A stretch of 64,000 bases of DNA from Callorhinchus milii (lineage: Eukaryota): NCBI RefSeq assembly GCF_018977255.1, contig NW_024704744.1, forward strand, positions 87,854,001 to 87,918,000, given 5' to 3'. The notes under the pieces were generated by a model. That model was not told the origin of the DNA and searched no databases. It saw only the letters and a list, made by a program, of their open reading frames with translations. Below are positions 6,206 to 51,370 of this stretch, one piece after another (position 1 is the stretch's first letter; each line of letters begins with the position of its first letter). The position numbers were made by a program, and so were the translations under genes.

Positions 6206-7706
6206 ATGATTATGATTGGCAGATAGTGGGATTAATGCTTAGCTTTCTAGGAAGCAGTTTCTAGTAAATCTGGGATCGTTACTGGTCTGGAACTAACTGG
6301 ATCTACAGTAGAGATGCACATGATATTAAAAAAGGAAGTTAGGCAATCCTGAAGGAGAATGGCATTGTGGTTCAGTGTGTTTGTGCTCCAGCATACTCTG
6401 CCTTGTAGCACTAGTTTATAGATAAGCTTGACCATTTCGGATTTTGATCAGCAAAAATTGGAATTCATCGTGTTTTCAATTTGATTCAAATTAAGAAATT
6501 AATTCCCATTATTAAACATTGTGTTTGTTATATTTTGTTTTGTTTGAAATTACCAAATGACCAACTTTTGGGTTGAAAGGTTGTCACAGATGTCACTTCT
6601 TGCATGATGCTCGTCTACACCATGCACAGGCAGTGTCCCAATCATCGTTAGTGAAAAAGATTGCAAAAAAAAGAACAAATGTTAATATTATCCATCAAAA
6701 CATTTTTTTAAAAAAGTCAACAATATTCATAGAGGGCTCCCATCTGGCTTTCTGGGATGCTGAAACTTTAGTAATGAGTAAACTATTAACTTAACTGAGA
6801 TGCTGTGTTGGAAACTGAATATTTTTATTGTTCCCTGAACAATTTACTGTTTGACAAAATAATCTATTCAGTAGTAAGTAAAATTAGGGATTTGTTGTGA
6901 CCCATTGGTTATGAACCGCCATCAAGTTGGTGTATAATTTCATTCAAAGGAGACTTTTTCTGTACAGACTAATTTCTATTTTATGAAAAACTGTATAAAG
7001 GTACGCGAAACACTTTCATTATAGGCATGGGCACCAATTCCTTCAAAATAAATTTCAGGTGCAATATCCAAGAAAAACTTTTCATTGTACTTAGATGTTA
7101 CGGGTAAGGAATTTAAGTAACTTCTTATATGCCTATTTATCATTCACATGAACTGAAATTTATTCACGGGCTGAAACTATCTTGAAAAATACAGCATTTG
7201 GATTACTGTATTTCTTCATTGAAACATTTAAACCCCTGTTATATTGTCATAATAATCTAAAAAATCCCAATAAAACAATATTTTTCAAGAATTGATTTGC
7301 TGTCACGTGCCATTTATATCTGAACGTGTCATTTATAATCTTTTACTGAAAAAAAATACTTTTCAAGGTTTGAACCATGAACTTTGCTTTGTGACAAAAT
7401 AAGTTGATGCATACTCTGACTACTATTATGTAAAACCACGTTCAATAGAGACAAACCATGAGGTTAACATTTGTATTGCGATGCATGCAAACTCATATAT
7501 GTACTACATGATAGTTCAGGTATGAATTGTGTAAAAGATGTTAAAGGTGTAACATCGTCTGGGGATGTGATATTGTAAAAAAAAATTGCATGTGATACTG
7601 AAACAGTCTAGGGATGTGATGACCTTCTAAAAGCATCCAAGCTTCACTCTTATGACATCAGAAATCTTGGATTGTATTACTAACTTGAACCACTCCCACT
7701 CTTTTT

Positions 7707-9701: not shown

Positions 9702-10014
9702 ATAATAATAATAATCCTTGCATTTGATATAGCGCTTTTCACCTCTTCTAGATATCTCAAAGCGCTTCACAGAATACACTGTACTGAATTGACCGTATAT
9801 TTGTGGGTGAAATACGGTAGCCAATTGCGCAGAGCAGTGTCCCACAAACAGTCGTGGATTGAAAATGACCAATTTATTATTGTTTTTGTTTTGGAGGGGT
9901 TATTATTAGGCGTGTGGAGTAAGGAAACTTGCCCAAGGTTTCGCCCTGCCTGGAATTGAACCCAGGTATCTCGCTTGGAAGGCAAGTGCTCTAACCACTG
10001 AGCTACAGGACTCC
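9702..10014 (-). mobile_element. SINE family A, full length
   Basis: On the minus strand: A box TAGCTCAGTGG, B box GGTTCAATTCC, CCTTGGGCAAGT segment, Deu-like 3' part, L2-like tail and (TTA)n; collinear with 51061-51370. Confidence 0.95.
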
Positions 10015-15570: not shown

Positions 15571-17872
15571 TGTGAGTGTCTCGCATGCTCTGTTGCAGCA
15601 ATTTTGTTCACTATACTGGAATGAACTTCTGACTTACATCTGAGCACTACGCTCTTACTAGCAATCTTAATGTGACATCGCTTCCAGCAGTGGAACAATT
15701 CAGAGCAAGAAGCCTGATTAATACTTCCTGCTTGCATTCGCACTCTCCAGAGGGACCAAGCAGAGCTCCCTAAAGCAGCCTTAATTTTTAATGTTATTCA
15801 AAAGTCGGTCGTGTGGCAGGATCTTTGATAACATTAAAATCAATCCCTTAAATTTTTTTACAATTCGCCACCCAAGAGCTTTTAAGGTACCACTTCTAAG
15901 CAGATTCATACAATTGGCCTTTGTACTACACAGGTACGAATCAACATCCCATTGGAAGCACTTCCTCAACCTGGTCTTGGGAGCTGTGTTCCTGCCCAAG
16001 TTGTTTTGGAATCCCTTTTTCTGGGTGTTTGTGTTGATTCGTCATGATTTTACCTAGTCAAATCACCTATCGAAAGCATAGTAATCTCGTACAACAGTCT
16101 CAACAAAAAAATGTATATCTTAGAAAATAATTGGTTTACACTGCAGTTGAGCAAATAATTTCTTTGGATTCTGAATCAGCAGCATAGAAAAGAATGTCTG
16201 ACACAGAATCTTAGTTCCCAAGTTGTACGTGAACCAAGCAGCATTTTCCTGGAAGTTGACAGCTTTATAAAACACAAAGTGAAATTATTTGAAGCCCGTT
16301 GATGAGAAAATGTGCAGCCTGAAGTTACAGAAACAATTCTTTTCTTAAGCTGTTGATTAAATAATTTGGTGCCTGAAGTTATGTAAACTATTCTATCCTT
16401 AAGATTCTGGTTAACCCTCAGCTCTGTGCCGCACTTTTTCTTTATTGATGACCTTCAGGCAAGCTTCAACTCCTTCAGAATCTTAATTTTCTTTAGCAAA
16501 TGACCTGATTCAAATCTCTGAGCCAATCATTCTTTTTTTATTACCTTCCTCTGGTACTATAGGCAGGATTCAGCGAGAATGGCTCTTTTGTAATGTACAG
16601 GTTACAGATTTTTATCTTGCAAGACAATTTATACACTCTATAATTATAGTGGTACCAAATGAATGGTTCCTAGTTTGCTGCCTTAAGTCATTTTAACTTT
16701 AATAATTGAACACATTGTTTCTTCAGCCAAAGTAGCAAAATAAAGTACAAAAACGAATTTATGCATCAACATTGATTTGTGTTGTTCAATTTCGTTTTCT
16801 TCTGCCCCCTCCACCCCCCCGGCCCCCCCACCCCATATAAAAAAAGTACGGTAGATTGAAACTTCATACAAAAAGATTTTACCTTCATCCAATTGGTATA
16901 ATGGTGGAGCCAAAGCACTTTTCTGCCTTCATCTTGTATGTAATTTCATTTTCTCAAAATTATGTAGTTATGATGTCCATGTTTATGAATTAAACATTAT
17001 GTACATTTCAATGGGTAGAAATTCCACCTGGATCTCGATTTATTCTATGTAGGATTTCAGAATGAAGGGAATTCTTAAATAAACCTTAATATTGAAGCCT
17101 GCTTTCTGTAAATTATTTTAAGAACTACAGAAAATTAACTTCAAAGTTAAGGCAGAGCTTAACAAATAGTGAAGTTCTGGATGTTCTAAAATGCTGCATA
17201 AATAGAGTATATCCAGACCCAGTTCAAATTTCTTCCCACAAATCACGTTGTACACATTTTATCATACATCAATGAAGTAGCATTGGTCTCCTTTTGCAGC
17301 TTGCATTTGAGAGACTTCAAAAGGGGAGGGAAAGGAGTGTTAAACTATTGTGTTAACTAACATAAGTTAAACATAGTAGAAAAGAATAGTTGGCCTTCAT
17401 TAGTCCAGACTGCAGTACATTTGTTCCATGTCTCTCTTGGTAGAAATAGAACAAAGATATTAACTAATCTTTCCCATAGTATATTGTCCTTCCCACCGCT
17501 TAGCACAAAAAATAGCACTGCCCCTAAAGAGAAGCTGACAATTTTTCACAATTCCAAATGCTGAAAAATAAATGCGATAAGCCATTTTACCTCTTCAACT
17601 CACTCCCTATCCATTCTACGCCACTTTTCCCCTACCCTTTAATGTGGCTGAAATTCTTTATTTATCTCTTCCCTCTTCACCACCCCCCTGCGATCTTCTG
17701 TTAAATTCCACCTTCATTATATACTTTAAATTAGCAATTAAAATTTATAAAACAAACATGATGTGTGTTTTATAAATGCAAAATGTGTATAAAAGCAAAA
17801 AAAATGCAAGTTGTTGTTTGCTAAGGTTTTGTTATGGTTTTGTAGAAAAAAAACAGAATTGCCCTAAGGAGG

Positions 17873-19252
17873 CTGCCCATAGCACAGAAACTGCCCTGGT
17901 CAAGGTCACCAACAACATCTTGACCATCTGCGACCAGGGCTCCCTCTGCCTCCTCGTCCTCCTCGACCTATCGGCAGCATTCGATACGGTCGACCACGCT
18001 ATCCTCCACCGCTTGTCCTCCCACCTCAACCTTCGAGGCCCTGTCTTTGAGTGGTTTAGGTCATACCTCTCCCACCATCTTCATTTTGTGTCCACAAACG
18101 GCTTTTCCTCCGGCCCCCGCACTGTCTCGTGCGGTGTCCCTCAGGGCTCTGTCCTCGGTCCCCTCCTCTTCACCCTCTATATGCTCCATCTTGGTGACAT
18201 CATCCGCAGACATGGGGTTAACTTCCACATGTATGCGGATGACACCCAACTCTACCTTTCCTCCTCTACCCTCAACTCCATGACCACTGATGTCCTGACA
18301 GCTGCCTGTCCGACATCGAGTCCTGGACGAGAGACAACTTTCTTCTGCTCAACGTGCGCAAAACTGAGGCCCTCCTGATTGGCTCACGTCAGTGCCTCCG
18401 CACCTCAGGCGCTGACACCATCAGCATCCAAGGCTGCACTCTCCACCTCTCAAAGCAGTCAGGAACCTCGGGGTTCTGTTCGACCCTGAGCTGTCCTTTC
18501 TTCCTCATATCTGCGCCACAACTGGCACCGCCTTCCATCACCTCTGAAACATCGCCAGACTACGGCACTACCTCACCCCTCACGCTGCTGAAACTCTGGT
18601 CCACGCCTTTATCACCTCAAGGCTGGACTATGGGAACTCTCTCCTCGCCGCCTTCCCGGCACCTCCCTCCACAAGCTGCAGGTCATTCAGAACTCTGCAG
18701 CTCGTGTACTGTCCCGCACCAGGCTTCGCGACCACATCACTCCCACCCTCGCTCGCCTCCACTGGCTCCCCATCCCCCAGAGGATCGAATTCACGATCCT
18801 CATCCTCACCTACAAGGCCATTCACGGCCTTGCTCCCTCCTATCTCTCCGACCTACTATCCCCCTACCTACCTGCCCGTACCCTCCATTCCTCTGGCTCC
18901 GGTCTGCTCCACATCCCCCGCCCCAACCACCCTACCATCGGTGGCCGGGCCTTCAGCCTCTCAGGCCGTACGGTCTGGAACTCCATTCCCCAGTGCCTTC
19001 AGCTCCCTTTCATATCCTTTCAGACCTTTCTCTTCAACTGTGCCTTCAGCTCCCCTCTCGACTCTCTACCCCCTCCTCGCTCCCTCCCTTCCCTCCCATC
19101 ACCCTGACCATTTCCCCCCTCCTCGCTCCCTCCCTTCCCTCCCCTCCCCCTGACCATTTTTCCACCAAGGCTCAGGTCCTGACCCAACTGTCCAGCGCCT
19201 TGGGATGTCCTCCCGACGTGAAAGGCGCTCTATAAATGGAATCTTGTTGTTG
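17873..19252 (+). mobile_element. 5'-truncated L2-clade LINE: RT C-terminal half (frameshifted), 3' UTR and (TTG)n tail
   Basis: Translation contains [41 protein letters not shown] and KTEALLIG; frameshifts after ~18300; CT-rich UTR with a ~46-bp duplication (19069-19160); terminal stem-loop then TTGTTGTTG. Confidence 0.95.
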
Positions 19253-27450: not shown

Positions 27451-29429
27451 TTTCCACTTCTGATTTAAAAAGCTATCTCCCAATGTGAGATTTCTGTGCA
27501 TGAATTCATATTTAATGTTTTAGCTTTGTGACTTGCAAACAAATTGGCTGAAGTTTTCAATCTGAACAATTTGTTCAGGTTGATAACGCATTACTTTGGA
27601 AGACGCAGATAAAATTCAGCCCAAAATGTTTCTTGTTTCAGTGGATGGTTTGATACATCCAAATAGGAGAGCAATTGTTTCAGAAAACAATGGGCTGTTT
27701 GATGACTAAAATAATTAGTTGGCATAGCCTTGCCCTGATTATATTACCCAGCACACTGCGTACACATTGCAGGACATCTTTATTTAGCAGTGTTGTGACA
27801 AAAAGATCAAAGCCACCCCTATAAATGCAGCCTGGCATGAAGAATATTGATTCAACACAGTGGATGGCTATCGTGACAAGCGGAGGGGAAGGAGTGGTTG
27901 GTGGAGAGTGGGCTTGCCCTGGCTGGTGACCCTCATAATTTCCAGTAGCAGGTGTAGGTGGCAATTATAGCTGCAGCCGCTATCCTGAACCTTCCATAGT
28001 AGGTGATGAATTGCAAATAGCTGGCACACAGTGCACAACAATAAACTCAAATAAATCTTCACCTGTAATAATGACAGCATAGGAAGACTGGCAGCTATAA
28101 CAAGGCTTCTGTTGTCACCCACTTTACCGTAGCCTTGATATTCATCATTATCAGCCAGGCCTTGCTCAGAAGATGGACAAGTAAACCCAAAGAAGGATGA
28201 TACGTTTGCTTTAAACCATCCAGCAGGTCCCATCTGGCAGCCAGCAAATGGGATTTTCGCCTGTTCACCCGGCCATAGCTGTCCATCATTTTCGGCAGGT
28301 ATCTGATCACATCTCAGTGTGGGACAATATGGCATCACACTGTACATTACGGCCTTGGCAACCAACATAATGCCAGCAGTAGTACAGTACATCAGTACAT
28401 GCTGTGATCCTATTTGAAAAAGGGAAATAATGTCATTGTCATGCACATAATAGTTAATGTATCTATGGTACATTTTAAGTAAAATGATTTATGAAATCTC
28501 TGGCAGCATAAAGTATTACAGGTACTTCAACCTTGTGCATATATAAAATGGTGCTTAGGCATTTGCTATTCTTTAAGTGTCTTCTGCATTTGCTGTAGAT
28601 ATTTTTCCTAGATTATTGTGCAGGCGGTGGAAATACACTTTAAATACTAGTAATTTTTCTAGGCCCTAACAATGTCCTATTGAAGAATTTCTTGATTCTG
28701 CTAAAATGGTTGTCAAATGAGTATTTCATCTCAGGGTTGCTTTGTACTGTGCTATGATTAAGCTTCATAATGTGCATAAGAAATGTGTTTAAAATGTAAT
28801 TTTTTTAAAGAAATTCTAAATAGGATATCACATTGTACTTTTGACTTGTAATTTCTTCACGCTTCTCATTACCGGCAAATGGCTGGATCCAGCTATTTTG
28901 TACAGATCATTGGTGAAGCCACACTTGTACTGTACAGTTTTGAGCACCGTACCTTCAAAATGACATTGATTTCTTTGGGAGAATTCAGAGAAGATCGTCA
29001 AGCATTGTTCAATCACTTAGATCTCATGCCATAAAGAGAGACTTGGAGGGCTAAACTTATTTTCATCAAGGAAAAGCACGTGGGGATTGGAGAAAGTAAA
29101 GTAGATGTAAGAGTAGAACCGGAGAATACTTTTTCAGCTCACACATTATGATGCTAAAAGCTCTAATATCCAGTAATAAAGCTATTTCAACATTAATATC
29201 TGTTAACCTTTAATGCTAAAATCATTTTGTTTTCTCCATATTGGCTTTTTCTTCTTCTATTCCCTCTCTCCCTCCCATTATCCTGAACAATTTCTTAAAC
29301 ACTTTTCTGTATATTCTAGTAATGCTTAGCTTTCAAATCTGTTTGCTTCTTTCTTCCAGCACCCACCATCCATATTGTAACCTGGAGGCACTTTTTTTAT
29401 TGCCTAAAAACAGACTTCCATTTTGTACA

Positions 29430-29540
29430 TTTTCTCACAAAATACACAGTCAATCCACTTTGCAGTATATTCTGTCAAGCGCTTTGAGAAGTCTGAATGA
29501 CGTGATAAGGCACTACATCAAATGCAAGGATTATTATTAT
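29430..29540 (+). mobile_element. SINE 3' fragment
   Basis: Standard SINE tail ending GCAAGGATTATTATTAT. Confidence 0.85.
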
Positions 29541-29619
29541 CCAATGAAAAGCACAGATTCCAATGATTGATGGGGTTAAATCATATTATCAGATCAATCC
29601 CAAAACAAAATGGCATCAG

Positions 29620-30003
29620 AAGCAGGAAATAAAACTGGAGATGGGAAAAAAATCTTCCCACTGAGTAATGGATATGTGAAACAGATTCCCAGTATAAGTA
29701 GTTAATACCATGTGGATGAACCACTTCAAAACCAGTTGGATAGATATCATCTGGTTAGCAATGTGTTTGAAGCCTATAGTATGATTATTAACTAACATGA
29801 TCAAATGATTCATGGAACATGATATGTTTTGGATCCAACCCCTCAGAATTCACAAGTGGAAATAGATATATTTTCTGGGAGTTTGTTTGATTATTTTTGA
29901 TAACTGGGGAGAAATTTTAAAGATTTGATAAGTGGAGTCTGTGAAGGTTTGGTCTGTGCAAGGAGTGAACTTGATAGACCAAATACCCTTTTCCTATTTT
30001 ATG
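29620..30003 (+). mobile_element. Decayed CR1 ORF2 end and 3' UTR
   Basis: GAGTAATGGATATGTGAAACAGATTCCC...TTCAAAACCAGTTGGATAG resembles the CR1 'RVV.MWNSLP...FK..LD' end; TTGATAGACCAAATACCCTTTTC resembles the CR1 3' terminus. Confidence 0.55.
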
Positions 30004-31203
30004 TTATTTTTCTTATAACATTGGATTTGTTTTAAAGATCACTACCCGCTACACCAATCTGCTTTTCCTTGATGAAAATAAGTTCAGCCCTCTATATCAG
30101 GTACTCCAGCCATCCCAGAGGTATTGGATATGCCGTAAGGATTGCCCTCCTCTAGAAAACTCATTTTCATTCATTTGAAACCCATGCTATTCATTGAAAT
30201 GTCTTTGAGTTGTCGATTATTTTGTACAGAGTAACGCATCAGTAATCCAACAAGGCTGGAGTATAACTACACGTGTTAACCTCTCACCTCTTTCAGTGTA
30301 ATTAGCTAAAATAACAATATATTGACTCTAGAATACACTAAGCAGCAAACATTCTAAATAAATTACATTAAAATACTATGAATTTGAAAATATACGATCC
30401 CCAAGGTAAGTATTTATGATTGAGCCTGCCAAATTACACATAAGGCTTCTCCCTGGCCACTGGCCAGAACTAGTGGCATACTATTTTTCAAGTGAATTTG
30501 TTTTCTCTCACCTTATTTTATTATAAATCTTGCATTCCCCTTAGCATTAGCTATGTAAGCAGATGCAGGTACACTTTGGCAAAGAACTCTTGATGGAATA
30601 ACATCTGACAAATTAAAAGTTACGGATATCATTGATCATCTGAGTCACTTTACCTCAAGATTGCGGTAGCCAGTGGAAAATGTATGTCAAGAAAGCTGTT
30701 TTCTCATGCTGAAATTTGGGCAATTTGTTTTCAGCCAGCCAGAGCAGTTTCCAGACTATTTTTGGAGCCCCTCTGTGGCCCAACCATACGTTCCAACATA
30801 ATTTATGGTCACACTGTAACATATGGACTTTTCATCATTGTCCAACTTGAAACCCTCTGTTGGAAGTAGCTGTAGTTATGTGCGTGTGTGGAGTGGGGTG
30901 GGGGATGCATCTTAAGTTTGAAAAAGCATGGTGTTTGTTTAGGTAATGCCTATTTAATTTTATGAGGAAAGGTAGTTTTCAAGGATAGTCGTGTGCATTG
31001 CTGAACAATAATTGCAATTCAGGTCAGGTCTCGCTTCATAAAAGTGGGGGTATGCTTGTTTGCTGGTTGTGTGTCCCAATGTTAAATCTGTTGTCGTCAT
31101 TCCTGTACATCACAGCTCTCACTGTAGCTATTACTATAAAACGCTCCCTAAGTACATAAAGGTTCTAATCGTTAAGATTTTTATTACCAGCCACACATAC
31201 AGA

Positions 31204-46430: not shown

Positions 46431-49400
46431 ATATCGGGTTTGATAACTTAAGCAGGTGAAAGGTGTGTGAGACACGTATGTGACCAAAAACAAATTGGTA
46501 AATCTTATACTTTTTAATTCTAATTTGATGATGCAAATGTCATCTGCTTAGACCAGACCACTATTGCAAACATTTATTTGCCATTTTAGTCTACATTTTT
46601 AGAATTTTTAGCAGTTAGAATCACGAGAGTTGCCAGAACTTCCTGTTGTTCTTCAGTGGTGTAAACTTTTGAAAACTCCTTTGACCTAATAGTAGGGGAG
46701 GTGATTGAATCTCCATGTTATTGTAGCTTGTTGAGAGTTTATTTTTCTCTCTCCTCCCCTCCAGCCCTACCCCTACCAAAAATGGCCTAATCTGGCACAT
46801 CAAAAATAGACAAAAATCTGATCCAAAATTAGACCAGGAAGATTGAGTGATCGTCAGCTCTCTGTCTCAAACAGACGATTAAGAGTCTAACTTTCGATAT
46901 TTCATTTCTTTTATGCATGTAAGTGAATTTGAACTGCAGTATTTTACCTTGTCTTGTTATTTTAAAATATTAGCAGGATGCTTGAAACATCAAGAAATGT
47001 GACTTTGAAATCCATTCATAGGCCTTGAGTGAAACTCAATTATGTTTCTCTCTCTACTTTATGATAAAAAGCAGCCATCAAGCTTCTCTTTCCATCATGT
47101 TGGTATTTATTGTGCCTTATTGTGGCTTAGCTGTAATAGTTAAATCACAAGTCTCTGGATTCCAACTCCCTTACTCCAACATTGAGTATCTTCAGCTTGA
47201 CTTATTGCATAACAATTCTGAAAAAAATCAATAACTCTTGTGTTTGTAAAATATGGAAACCATTTTTCAGTTAATAAGATTTATGGTATTGGAAAGCTCA
47301 TGCTATAATGCTAATTCATTTTGTACACTTTATGTAATTGTATGACTACAAGTGTAGCGTCGTGAAATTGCTGCTTTTCTTTTTAAATTCCCTTGTGTAA
47401 TATATTATTACCCATCGCTCTGTATTGCCCTCAAATAACAATGTTAAACTGGTTCAAAGATACTGACTCTTATGAAATTCATGCTATTTGTTGTTGTTGG
47501 TGCACTAAAACCTTTTTTGGGTGAAAGCAGTTAATGTCAAAAAATGAAATAAACTCAATGTGTTCGACACACCATGCACAAAACCAGTGAATAAAATATT
47601 TGCTTGTTAATATTTGGTTTTGATACTGTCTACCTTTATATTGACATTAATAATCTTATGGGGTAGAATATTTATATACTTTTTTTAAGTAGATGGTAAT
47701 GTTTTGCTATCACCTGCAAATGAAATGAATCATGAATAATGCATTTGAGGAAATAGTTGTTTTCTGAATTAGATTAGAAATAATTTAGACTGGAGAAACA
47801 GTGTGTAAGCCATGGTTGGATAGTAGATAGAAGCAGGATGATAGTTTTTATTACAGTTCAATCTAGCCTTTAGAGCTTTACATGACTGAGACCAATAAAA
47901 CTATTTTGCACACGGAAAAAGCAATTGATCACACTTTTTTATAGTCATTTATGTAAGGTTGGCAGTGCCTCCAATTATATTAATGATATGATGCAATGCT
48001 GCTGTATGTAAGCATGGCAATAAATGTATTTAATATATGTCAGAAATTGCAATTCAGTGATTGTATTTGAAAAAGCAAATCTTAAGACAATTAAAATGTG
48101 AGATAATTGCTTGATTTCTTGGAAAGGGGGAATCTATCTATTCCCTGTACTTTACGGTTTTAAATAGTGTTTAGCTATTGTTTTAACTGGTTTGATTTGC
48201 TTGAATGATTTTGTTTTTGAACATCCCTGATTACCACATTTCATCACATAGGTCAAACTGCTCAATTAGCCAGTTTTCTTCTCTGACCTGGAACGTCGCA
48301 AGTGCAAAGGCACAGAGTGATTTCATATGTAGTTTCTGGTAAATTCATTGTACTAACATTCATGTGGGTTGGCCACTGCCTCTTAAATTCTGTTGCTAGT
48401 GATCCAGTATGGTCTTATAAGTAAACTAAATGCTTACTTCACTCTTGGATGCTACTTGTGTACAGGAAGACTCAATTAAAGTGTAAAACATTATGACACA
48501 CGTTTACAGAACATAGAAAGGCTTGTTATGCTGGTATTCTCATTGGTCATTGGCTAAACTTCTAATTGTGCTTTTGAATTCAATCATTCTATCATAATTG
48601 TTCTTTCAATGAAAAACTTGGGAGAGTTGTCCATGCATTTGATGTTTTTTTTTCCTCCAAGCCCATACAGGCCTATTGGTTCCCGAATGTGTTTTACCTG
48701 TCCAAAAGACCAGCATTGCCATCTAAAGGGGCAATTATGAATACAGTGCAACTCGTAAAATAAATAGTCCAATTATTTTGTATTCCAGAAAGAGCCCAGT
48801 GCAACAATTTTGACCTATCTGTGTAATATTAGTTACCTTTGGCATGTAATCAAACAGCCAGATTGAAATACAGTATGTGTTCTAACCGGAAAATGCAAAG
48901 ATTGTCAGTGTCAAAACGAAAGTCAAAACAAGGTCTTTCCTTGCAATTAAAAATTGGCATTCCTTATTCAATTTGCAACCGCCTACAAAGACCTTGTAGA
49001 ATACATGGTAGTGGTTTGGCTAGTTCTCCTGATTTTTATTTGATTAATGGTGAGAAATCAGCACACATTCTTTAAAAAAGACTTTCTCAATTATCCAGGT
49101 AAGGGAAAGAGAGAGAGAGAGAAATTCTAGAATGTTGTATAATTTGTTAACCATGGCAAGTGAGTAAATAAGATTAATATTGGTTGGAAAACCTAGTCAG
49201 CAGTGTAGACTGAGGAATGCACTTTCCCTCCACACATTTTATACTGTACAACTGAATAAAAACATCATGTCCGCCATGAGATAATGCGATCATGAACCTT
49301 TAACTCGGCATGAAACATGCATAGTCTGCTCATCTTGCAGTCATTGTGTAAAAAAAGGATTAATGTGTTGCAGGAATACAGACAATGACACAGAATGAAA

Positions 49401-50968
49401 ATCTCTTCTGCAGATTAAAAAAGAAAAGATTCCGATCTACACTTGGCTCATAATATAATATTAGTTTAATAATAATAAGGGAGGGATGTGGAGGGAATAA
49501 TAATAATAATAAGTTTGTTTATTTGCCGAGCTGGAAGTTGGGGGGGAAATATTGTCTGCAAAAATAGAATGCGGGTTTCAGACATTCTTGTATATATTTT
49601 ATTAACTTGTGACATTGATTTATCACATCTCATTCATATACCCTATTTTTTTTAAAAAAGATGCACCATCTTGATTTATTGAAATGCATTACAATAGAAG
49701 AAAGTGTTTTAACAAATAAAAGCAGCAGACCCTTCTGTGTTGTTTTGTCTGTGTTAAATAGTTGACTGTTTTTCTCATGGGTGAGTCATGAAACTGAGAA
49801 TAAACAGCAGTTGTAAATTGTTCATTTTTAGTATTACCTAATAATTATCGGAAGGAGTCCACAAAAAATAAATTGTGTTTTTAACATTAGTAGGTTTAGA
49901 AAATAACTTCTATAGTAGGGTAATAATTCCTTTTCAATATATAGGTGCAAAGGTGCTAACTCCTGAAGATTTATAGGTTGGTTCAGAATGGAACATTTTC
50001 AGCAATGGAAAAAATCTGAGTCTGGAACTGAGCTCAGATAGCTTTATTGGGTTTGTTTTTGTGAAAAGAAATTATTTTTCTGAAGTGCACGTTTTTGTCA
50101 CTGAAGCACACAACAGTAGGTAAGGCAAAGAAAGTGAAAAAAACGCATACACTTCAAGTGAATCCTTTCGCTCTGTTTATGTGCTGTTTTTTGGTTGACT
50201 GTGCTAACCTTCTCATTACTAGAATGTATATTCACCTCAGTAGGTGGGATGTAGTCTCTCTGCAGAAGAACACTGTATCTTTGGCTCTGACAGCTCTGCA
50301 TACATCATGGACTCCTCTGAGCAATTTGTTTCCCTTTTCCAGATTAACACTCCTGGGTCTGGCAGTAATGAGAGACTGGTCCACTTCTCCCAGGACCCCC
50401 ATCACCAAGAGTGAGTATAATTTACATCAATGATTCCTCATCATTACCAGTGCCCAGACTTATTTATTATCCCCCTGCTTTGTGAACAATATCCCAGAGA
50501 AGCATGGAACTGTGAATTTTATTTTAGGTCAAAGGTAGTTTATATAAAAGGGTAAAACCTGCTTTTTTTCCAAATGTGTAGCATTTTCGTATTATGTTAT
50601 GGTTTTAAGAGATGAAAAGTACTGAATGATGAATTCAATGCTAAAGGCGTTACAACCATGACTTGACCTTAGAATTCTTAAAAATATTTTCAGTGTAAAT
50701 ATATATGTATGCTTTATCATGATTACACTTCTAGCTAAGAAAACAAAAATATAATGCCACAGATATATAAAGGTCTAATATGCGAAGTTAGATTCACTGC
50801 AAAATGTCAATCTTGAATATGTAGCCTGTTTACTTCTTGGGTTAGGTGTTTTTGTTGCTGTCGTACAAAAAACAGTATGATTTGATCCAATCCACAGGCA
50901 TAACAGATATATGTAATGCCCAATATTAGGGATGAAAAGAAAACCATGTGAATCCTAGTGATTAGCGG

Positions 50969-51060: not shown

Positions 51061-51370
51061 GAGTCCTGTAGCTCAGTGGTTAGAGCACTCGCCTTGTATG
51101 CGAGACTCCTGGGTTCAGTTCCAGGCAGGGTGAAACCTTGGGCAAGTTTCCTTACTCCACACGCCTAATAATCCCTCCAAAACGAAACAATAATAAATTG
51201 GTCATTTTCAATCCACGACTGTTTGTGGGACGCTGCTGTGCGCAATTGGCTGCCACGTTTCGCCCACAAATATACAGTCAATTCACTTTACAGCATATTC
51301 TGTGAAGCCCTTTGAGGCGTCTAGAAGACGTGAAAAGCACTATATCAAATGCAAGCATTATTATTATTAT
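51061..51370 (+). mobile_element. SINE family A, full length
   Basis: A box TAGCTCAGTGG (51069-51079), B-box-like GGTTCAGTTCC, CORE-like segment, Deu-like 3' part, stem-loop tail and (TTA)n. Confidence 0.95.

Follow-up and report, generated by a model that had tools for sequence, protein, structure and literature searches.

In the window, that is, the whole stretch of 64,000 nt of Callorhinchus milii DNA that was analysed, tblastn located exons of GPATCH2, a G-patch RNA-helicase cofactor, on the plus strand at positions 50343, 59009, and 59964; further GPATCH2 exons on the same strand lie upstream of the window, including one 29 kb away. The intron closed by the exon at 50343 is 66,933 nt long and holds a pair of short inverted arms. 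The distance from the pair to the 5′ end of the intron is 45,637 nt, and that to the next exon 20,251 nt. Going by this gene model rather than by reads, the locus would be transcribed on the plus strand within GPATCH2, and to that extent the doubt raised in an earlier note on this DNA, whether the locus is transcribed, is answered. Early in the same intron (L077:9292), isoform X4 of C. milii GPATCH2 has an alternative last exon, and several sharks and rays have GPATCH2 isoforms truncated at the isoform X4 junction, without the G-patch. Head-to-head with GPATCH2, on the minus strand, are exons at L071:864-1010 and L073:2756-2911 that we take to be SPATA17-like, and window 17776-19235 (plus strand) carries a frameshifted reverse-transcriptase relic, presumably L2-like. 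An Rfam search over the window returned two tRNA-like SINE heads alone (9941-10012, minus strand; 51062-51133, plus strand) and nothing at the pair. In the accessible parts of the literature on GPATCH2 introns or poison exons, on GPATCH2 with ESRRG, and on A-to-I editing in C. milii, the pair site is not mentioned.

Features of the inverted pair and its surroundings (window positions).
Feature	Position	Strand	Evidence
Decayed CR1 LINE, end of ORF2, upstream of left arm	28898..29045	+	nhmmer 28898-28994, E 7.5e-8; z 16.3 versus shuffles
Left arm, putative donor, internal CR1 codons including A29053	29046..29078	+	32/33 match; CR1 matrix
6-nt "bulge" and GATTGG, reading as CR1 after a presumed 5-nt donor deletion	29079..29090	+	CR1 matrix
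Piece of high-copy SINE	29430..29540		3651 genome candidates
3′ part and tail of the same CR1, oriented as the 5′ part	29560..30020 (end approximate)	+	L027 match; z 9.5
Right arm, putative inverted copy (33 bp at 30060-30092 and 5-6 bp continuing the CR1 pattern)	30054..30092	-	CR1 matrix; outer flank not CR1-like; site shared by organisms B and C
Exon-like stretch, predicted poison exon	30297..30405	+	Splice-site scores; stops in three frames
Next GPATCH2 coding exon, closing the intron that holds the pair	50343..50410	+	tblastn, 100% to P0001

The arms are reverse-complementary at 32 of 33 positions and stand 981 nt apart. Their sole mismatch sets A29053, which has a T on its 5′ side, against C30085, and beyond 6 unpaired bases GATTGG (29085-29090) pairs with CCAATC (30054-30059). 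The outer edges of the pair are sharp, with no degenerate extension; a check of the flanking sequence found no target-site duplication (TSD) of 2-11 bp, and the sequence has no poly-A tail at the right arm, the presumed acceptor. The description given in the earlier note, of 33-bp arms with a single A-C mismatch and a U 5′ of the A, extended inward past a 6-nt bulge and lacking a flanking TSD, was thus accurate. Because 400 kb of locally shuffled sequence contained no comparable inverted pair, we ascribe the match between the arms to shared descent.

The genome-wide search with each arm that had been proposed in the same note found the arms to be single-copy. A pattern search of 991 Mb with up to three mismatches gave two matches, the two arms themselves (control, 0), and a search with the 23-base core and up to two mismatches gave the arms and one site with two mismatches (control, 2). 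DNA similarity searches ignore common words, and it is by the pattern counts that a high-copy family of terminal inverted repeats (TIRs) was excluded. BLAST of each arm with its flanks recovered the partner arm, the left flank additionally matching one CR1 relic, and an exact 25-mer had no match in metagenome contigs.

We analysed the descent of the arms using an nhmmer profile built from 29 genomic CR1 copies and a CR1 matrix made from 24 of the 29 codon-aligned CR1 blocks, five blocks of a young family having been dropped to reduce bias. The relic L027 matches the window at 28935-28967 and 29634-29711, both plus/plus, and because the two parts are matched in the same orientation, one CR1 appears to span the left arm with an interior that is not inverted. 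An inverted interior was ruled out, both CR1 parts lying on the plus strand and in order. The 16 nt preceding the left arm are in CR1 register (top 0.11% of window positions on the matrix), and the arm together with these 16 nt ranks in the top 1e-5, whereas the outer flank of the right arm, at the 67th percentile, is not CR1-like. Plain pairwise alignment of the left arm alone gave no significant match (z −0.5), its CR1 identity being a matter of matrix and register. By this matrix test, one copy is native to its context and the other is foreign. We conclude from the sequence that the left arm is a stretch from within a decayed CR1 LINE. We also considered the right arm as part of a second, antisense CR1 and rejected this: with its inner flank the arm gave z 3.3 (one of 11 segments tried), the inner flank alone gave z 0.6 and the outer flank z 0.7, and CR1 likeness was dismissed beyond the 5 bases adjoining the arm.

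Those 5 bases, on the inner side of the right arm, still follow the CR1 pattern (top 1.6%). On the left side, 29079-29088 scored 5.5 (top 0.16%) when read five columns further on in the matrix, versus −12.9 (50%) when no deletion was allowed. A copy of ~38 bp made from left to right, followed by a 5-nt deletion in the donor, would explain the 6-nt bulge. Both arms encode Ser where 23 of 24 CR1 blocks have Leu, and Arg where 22 of 24 have Glu; because they have these decay changes at near-invariant ORF2 codons in common, copying was probably later than the onset of CR1 decay. The earlier note had described a SINE and a decayed CR1 in the interior of the pair. Both are present, but the CR1 is not confined to the interior, the left arm being part of it. 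That note had also argued, from arms far better preserved than the sequence between them, that selection maintains an RNA duplex, and this argument is not supported: since the left arm too consists of decayed CR1, arm-to-arm identity measures the time since copying, and since copying followed CR1 decay, the contrast between arms and interior reflects two different clocks. The best genome copies of the SINE piece are 92-93% identical to it, and a contig of organism C joins 29372 to 29643, the SINE and its flanks being absent there.

Contigs of four runs were compared over 28750-30550. In organism A (runs X1 and X5), both arms are identical to the assembly; at 28980, both runs have T for the A of the assembly, either a polymorphism or an error in the assembly. 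For organisms B and C, depth was 0 at 28994-29115, the region of the left arm. In organism C, 29855-30550 is spanned by one contig, which has 78 substitutions and 21 gap bases; no gap base falls in the arm. Organism B gave one contig over 29963-30096 with 16 substitutions (positions given for 10), in which at least 22 of 28 bases match at 30060-30087. Both organisms have A for C at 30088 (partner G29050) and C for A at 30056 (partner T29088, in the extension), changes that break pairs unless the left arm there compensates. No empty right-arm site was seen, organisms B and C both already having the site. Judged from these contigs, the right-arm site is older than the split from organisms B and C, which are 11-12% diverged.

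Over that age, ~3.6 mismatches would be expected between the arms, versus the 1 in 33 observed. The probability of at most one mismatch in 33 is 0.19, 0.11, 0.06, and 0.006 at 9, 11, 13, and 20% divergence, for a pair that was picked for its quality. In organism B, at most 6 differences fall in 70 bases including the arm core, versus 10 in the other ~64 (Fisher p 0.29); the sparsity reaches p 0.004 on the assumption that three more differences lie outside the arm core. That the arms resemble each other somewhat more than would be expected at their age is a weak residual hint of constraint, and it is the low arm divergence together with the sparse differences in organism B that keeps selection and conversion among the readings weighed below.

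Taken together, these results suggest that the left arm is a CR1 piece and that the right arm is probably a one-off inverted copy of it, likely made by template switching in repair or replication and probably neutral. A CR1 would have inserted in the long GPATCH2 intron and decayed; ~38 bp of it would then have been copied onto the opposite strand just beyond the CR1 tail, at that time ~0.7 kb off, through template switching in the repair of a DNA break or in replication. Later, the donor would have lost 5 bp and one arm gained a transition. The copying event would predate the split from organisms B and C, and either the SINE would have landed between the arms or organism C would have lost it. 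We infer the direction and order of copying, the repair or template-switch mechanism, and neutrality from the combination of these features.

Thomas et al. 2004 are said to have written of "doublets", the kind to which the pair seems closest: donor and acceptor lie within 5 kb of each other, the genome has exactly two copies, and the acceptor has no poly-A. In the accessible text of Pace et al. (2009, PMC2671141), repair-mediated duplications have donors within 5 kb at a mean spacing of 1.2 kb and no poly-A, are found in fish and birds, and are linked to the doublets of Thomas et al. The present pair resembles them, as far as that text describes them, in being a short, local, single-copy duplication without poly-A, with a donor ~1 kb off, in which a transposable element (TE) tells donor from acceptor, opposite orientation being allowed (the ACSBG2 example). 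It differs from the duplications described there in its length, 33-38 bp versus a 50-bp cut-off, and in having the donor within a TE and the acceptor outside. Because Pace et al., in the same text, take insertions of at least 50 bp that interrupt a TE, we file the present copy as the shorter, doublet kind.

We compared the pair with the local background of inverted pairs, using as filter a length of at least 22 bp, an identity of at least 90%, a distance below 5 kb, and arms without a match elsewhere in the sampled DNA. Seven inverted pairs passed in 460 kb around the locus (the arm pair included) and four in 400 kb made up of 40 scattered stretches, so that at this loose cut-off the rate is ~10 per Mb, or about one per 100 kb. 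High-quality pairs are rarer: at 30-50 bp and at least 95% identity, the arm pair and one direct pair remain in 860 kb. Dispersed inverted and direct pairs numbered 9 and 3 (p 0.15). When two of the other pairs were searched genome-wide, their arms matched each other alone. Non-repeat inverted pairs with cores of 22-49 bp and spacers of 415-562 nt occur at L070:1266-1772, L073:4849-5332, L075:5784-6296, L075:8009-8620, and L109:5740-6252; four of these five cluster in 60 kb of DNA around the head-to-head region of SPATA17 and GPATCH2, and most extend into a weaker match. They could be old low-copy MITE ends, products of conversion, or RNA structures. A recent tandem triplication with a unit of ~0.9 kb (99% identical) was seen at L069:6734-9537.

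Foremost among the alternatives to a neutral copy, and unlikely in our view, is that the accidental copy was later exapted, a selected duplex now modulating how the long intron is spliced or whether the predicted poison exon, 204 nt downstream, is included, perhaps via ADAR at A29053. Because GPATCH2 lies on the plus strand, its pre-mRNA carries the A-C form of the duplex, for which an energy of −50.4 kcal/mol was predicted (−54.6 on the minus strand). The duplex is present in the minimum free energy and centroid structures of a predicted 1.1 kb fold, and in a 1.55 kb fold 31 of 32 pairs have probabilities of 0.89-1.0. The claim that the arms pair in RNA is thereby supported as a prediction, and the arms are predicted to pair in GPATCH2 pre-mRNA, a point in favour of exaptation as are the position of the pair in the sense-strand intron, the low number of arm mismatches for its age, and the hint of a conserved right-arm core in organism B. 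Against it, no pairing is predicted for the 6-bp extension in context (probability 0), organisms B and C differ at one base of the arm and one of the extension, and the coding exons nearest to the pair are 20 and 46 kb off. For five inverted pairs of SINEs in this intron, energies of −94 to −221 kcal/mol are predicted, versus −50 for the arm pair.

ADAR prefers A opposite C and a 5′ U, and the earlier note had read the A-C mismatch as a possible sign of editing. Transitions make up 64% (organism C) and 70% (organism B) of substitutions, and because each transition in an inverted pair yields either A-C or G-U, about one third of single substitutions are expected to yield A-C, the form seen here. 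The coding exons on either side of 29053 are 45.6 kb and 21 kb off, and an A-to-G change at this base would produce neither AG nor GT and would alter no codon or splice signal. A contig of run X5, by guess RNA, has A at 29053 and runs unspliced through 30297-30405, contigs being records that drop minority variants. Recursive splicing at the AG/GT of 30099-30102 was considered and rejected, with a donor score of 1.2 and the AG lost in organism C. Editing-complementary sequences of ADAR targets such as the GRIA2 Q/R site, and editing inducer elements, resemble the pair in that an A with a 5′ U faces C within an imperfectly paired duplex, but differ in that here both arms are deep intronic, the duplex neither contains nor adjoins an exonic codon or a splice signal, and editing is hypothetical. 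In the accessible text of PMC8052449, PCCRs are defined within conserved, repeat-masked intron sequence, and those below −30 kcal/mol are the class most enriched for A-to-I sites. As described there, PCCRs share with the present pair a long-range intronic complementarity below −30 kcal/mol; both arms lie on one pre-mRNA and are predicted to pair, but the left arm is CR1-derived, and thus the pair is LINE-derived rather than conserved non-repeat sequence. As a neutral repair-made copy, the arms would pair in pre-mRNA and may undergo low-level incidental ADAR editing, as in the stronger SINE-SINE duplexes of the intron; such editing of the duplex would have no effect on codons or splice signals.

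The strong orphan exon that the earlier note had placed ~200 nt downstream scores well at its splice sites on a rough matrix (acceptor 5.1, donor 8.0) but stops in all three frames, and its inclusion in phase 0 would give a stop at codon 3. Such an early stop would suit an exapted switch, as would the proximity of the exon: 107 candidates scoring likewise were counted in 800 kb (both strands, overlapping and repeat-derived ones included), a density of 0.067 per strand-kb that gives a ~1.4% chance of one within 205 nt. The window holds two such candidates on the plus strand and one on the minus strand; the exon-like stretch with the top score of the window (15.5), at 46765-46918 (plus strand), has no open frame and lies in the same intron. 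In the accessible text of PMC11632617, PCCRs flank 25% of human cryptic poison exons; on the other hand, the one such exon listed in its supplement for human GPATCH2 is "3b", by name in a different intron. The stretch at 30297-30405 occurs in none of the seven C. milii GPATCH2 protein isoforms, records that NMD transcripts would escape. In organism C, a deletion of 2 nt and an insertion of 1 nt fall within it, and the contig with it has ~11% substitutions, similar to the CR1 relic, which argues against exaptation, as does the geometry: the pair neither loops out 30297-30405 nor covers its splice sites. The specific proposal that a repair-made inverted CR1 copy was exapted in chimaeras as an ADAR-tunable duplex controlling an unannotated GPATCH2 poison exon is more doubtful still.

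Gene conversion or hairpin-templated repair may instead have re-homogenised the arms of a pair that is neutral and older than it appears, and this would account for the low divergence between them. At 30088 and 30056, organism A agrees with the left arm and organisms B and C do not, and a near-perfect core within a longer ~80% match is seen in several of the other inverted pairs nearby. The sharp edges of the present pair speak against conversion, however, and the letters in B and C are explained equally well as changes common to those two species; we regard this reading as improbable, on a par with the ADAR-tunable poison exon. Least credible by far is the alternative offered in the earlier note, that the arms are TIRs of a non-autonomous DNA transposon: the 1 kb size and the inverted ends of some 30 bp are those of a MITE, and one similar neighbouring pair (L074) has a match at a second place, but the arms have just two genome matches, a TSD is absent, and the left arm lies inside a LINE that is in register on either side of it. 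That neighbour, a 35-bp inverted pair (97%) at L074:6143-7127, has a further partial copy, the third, at 6562-6588 and also matches L124; it likely represents real transposon ends, and it was excluded from the filtered count because of its match at a second place.

[quoted passage not shown] If the duplex were selected, it would offer a datable origin of a long-range splicing structure in a slowly evolving vertebrate, and were the ADAR-tunable control of a GPATCH2 poison exon true, the birth of a regulatory RNA structure would be traceable to a single DNA repair accident.
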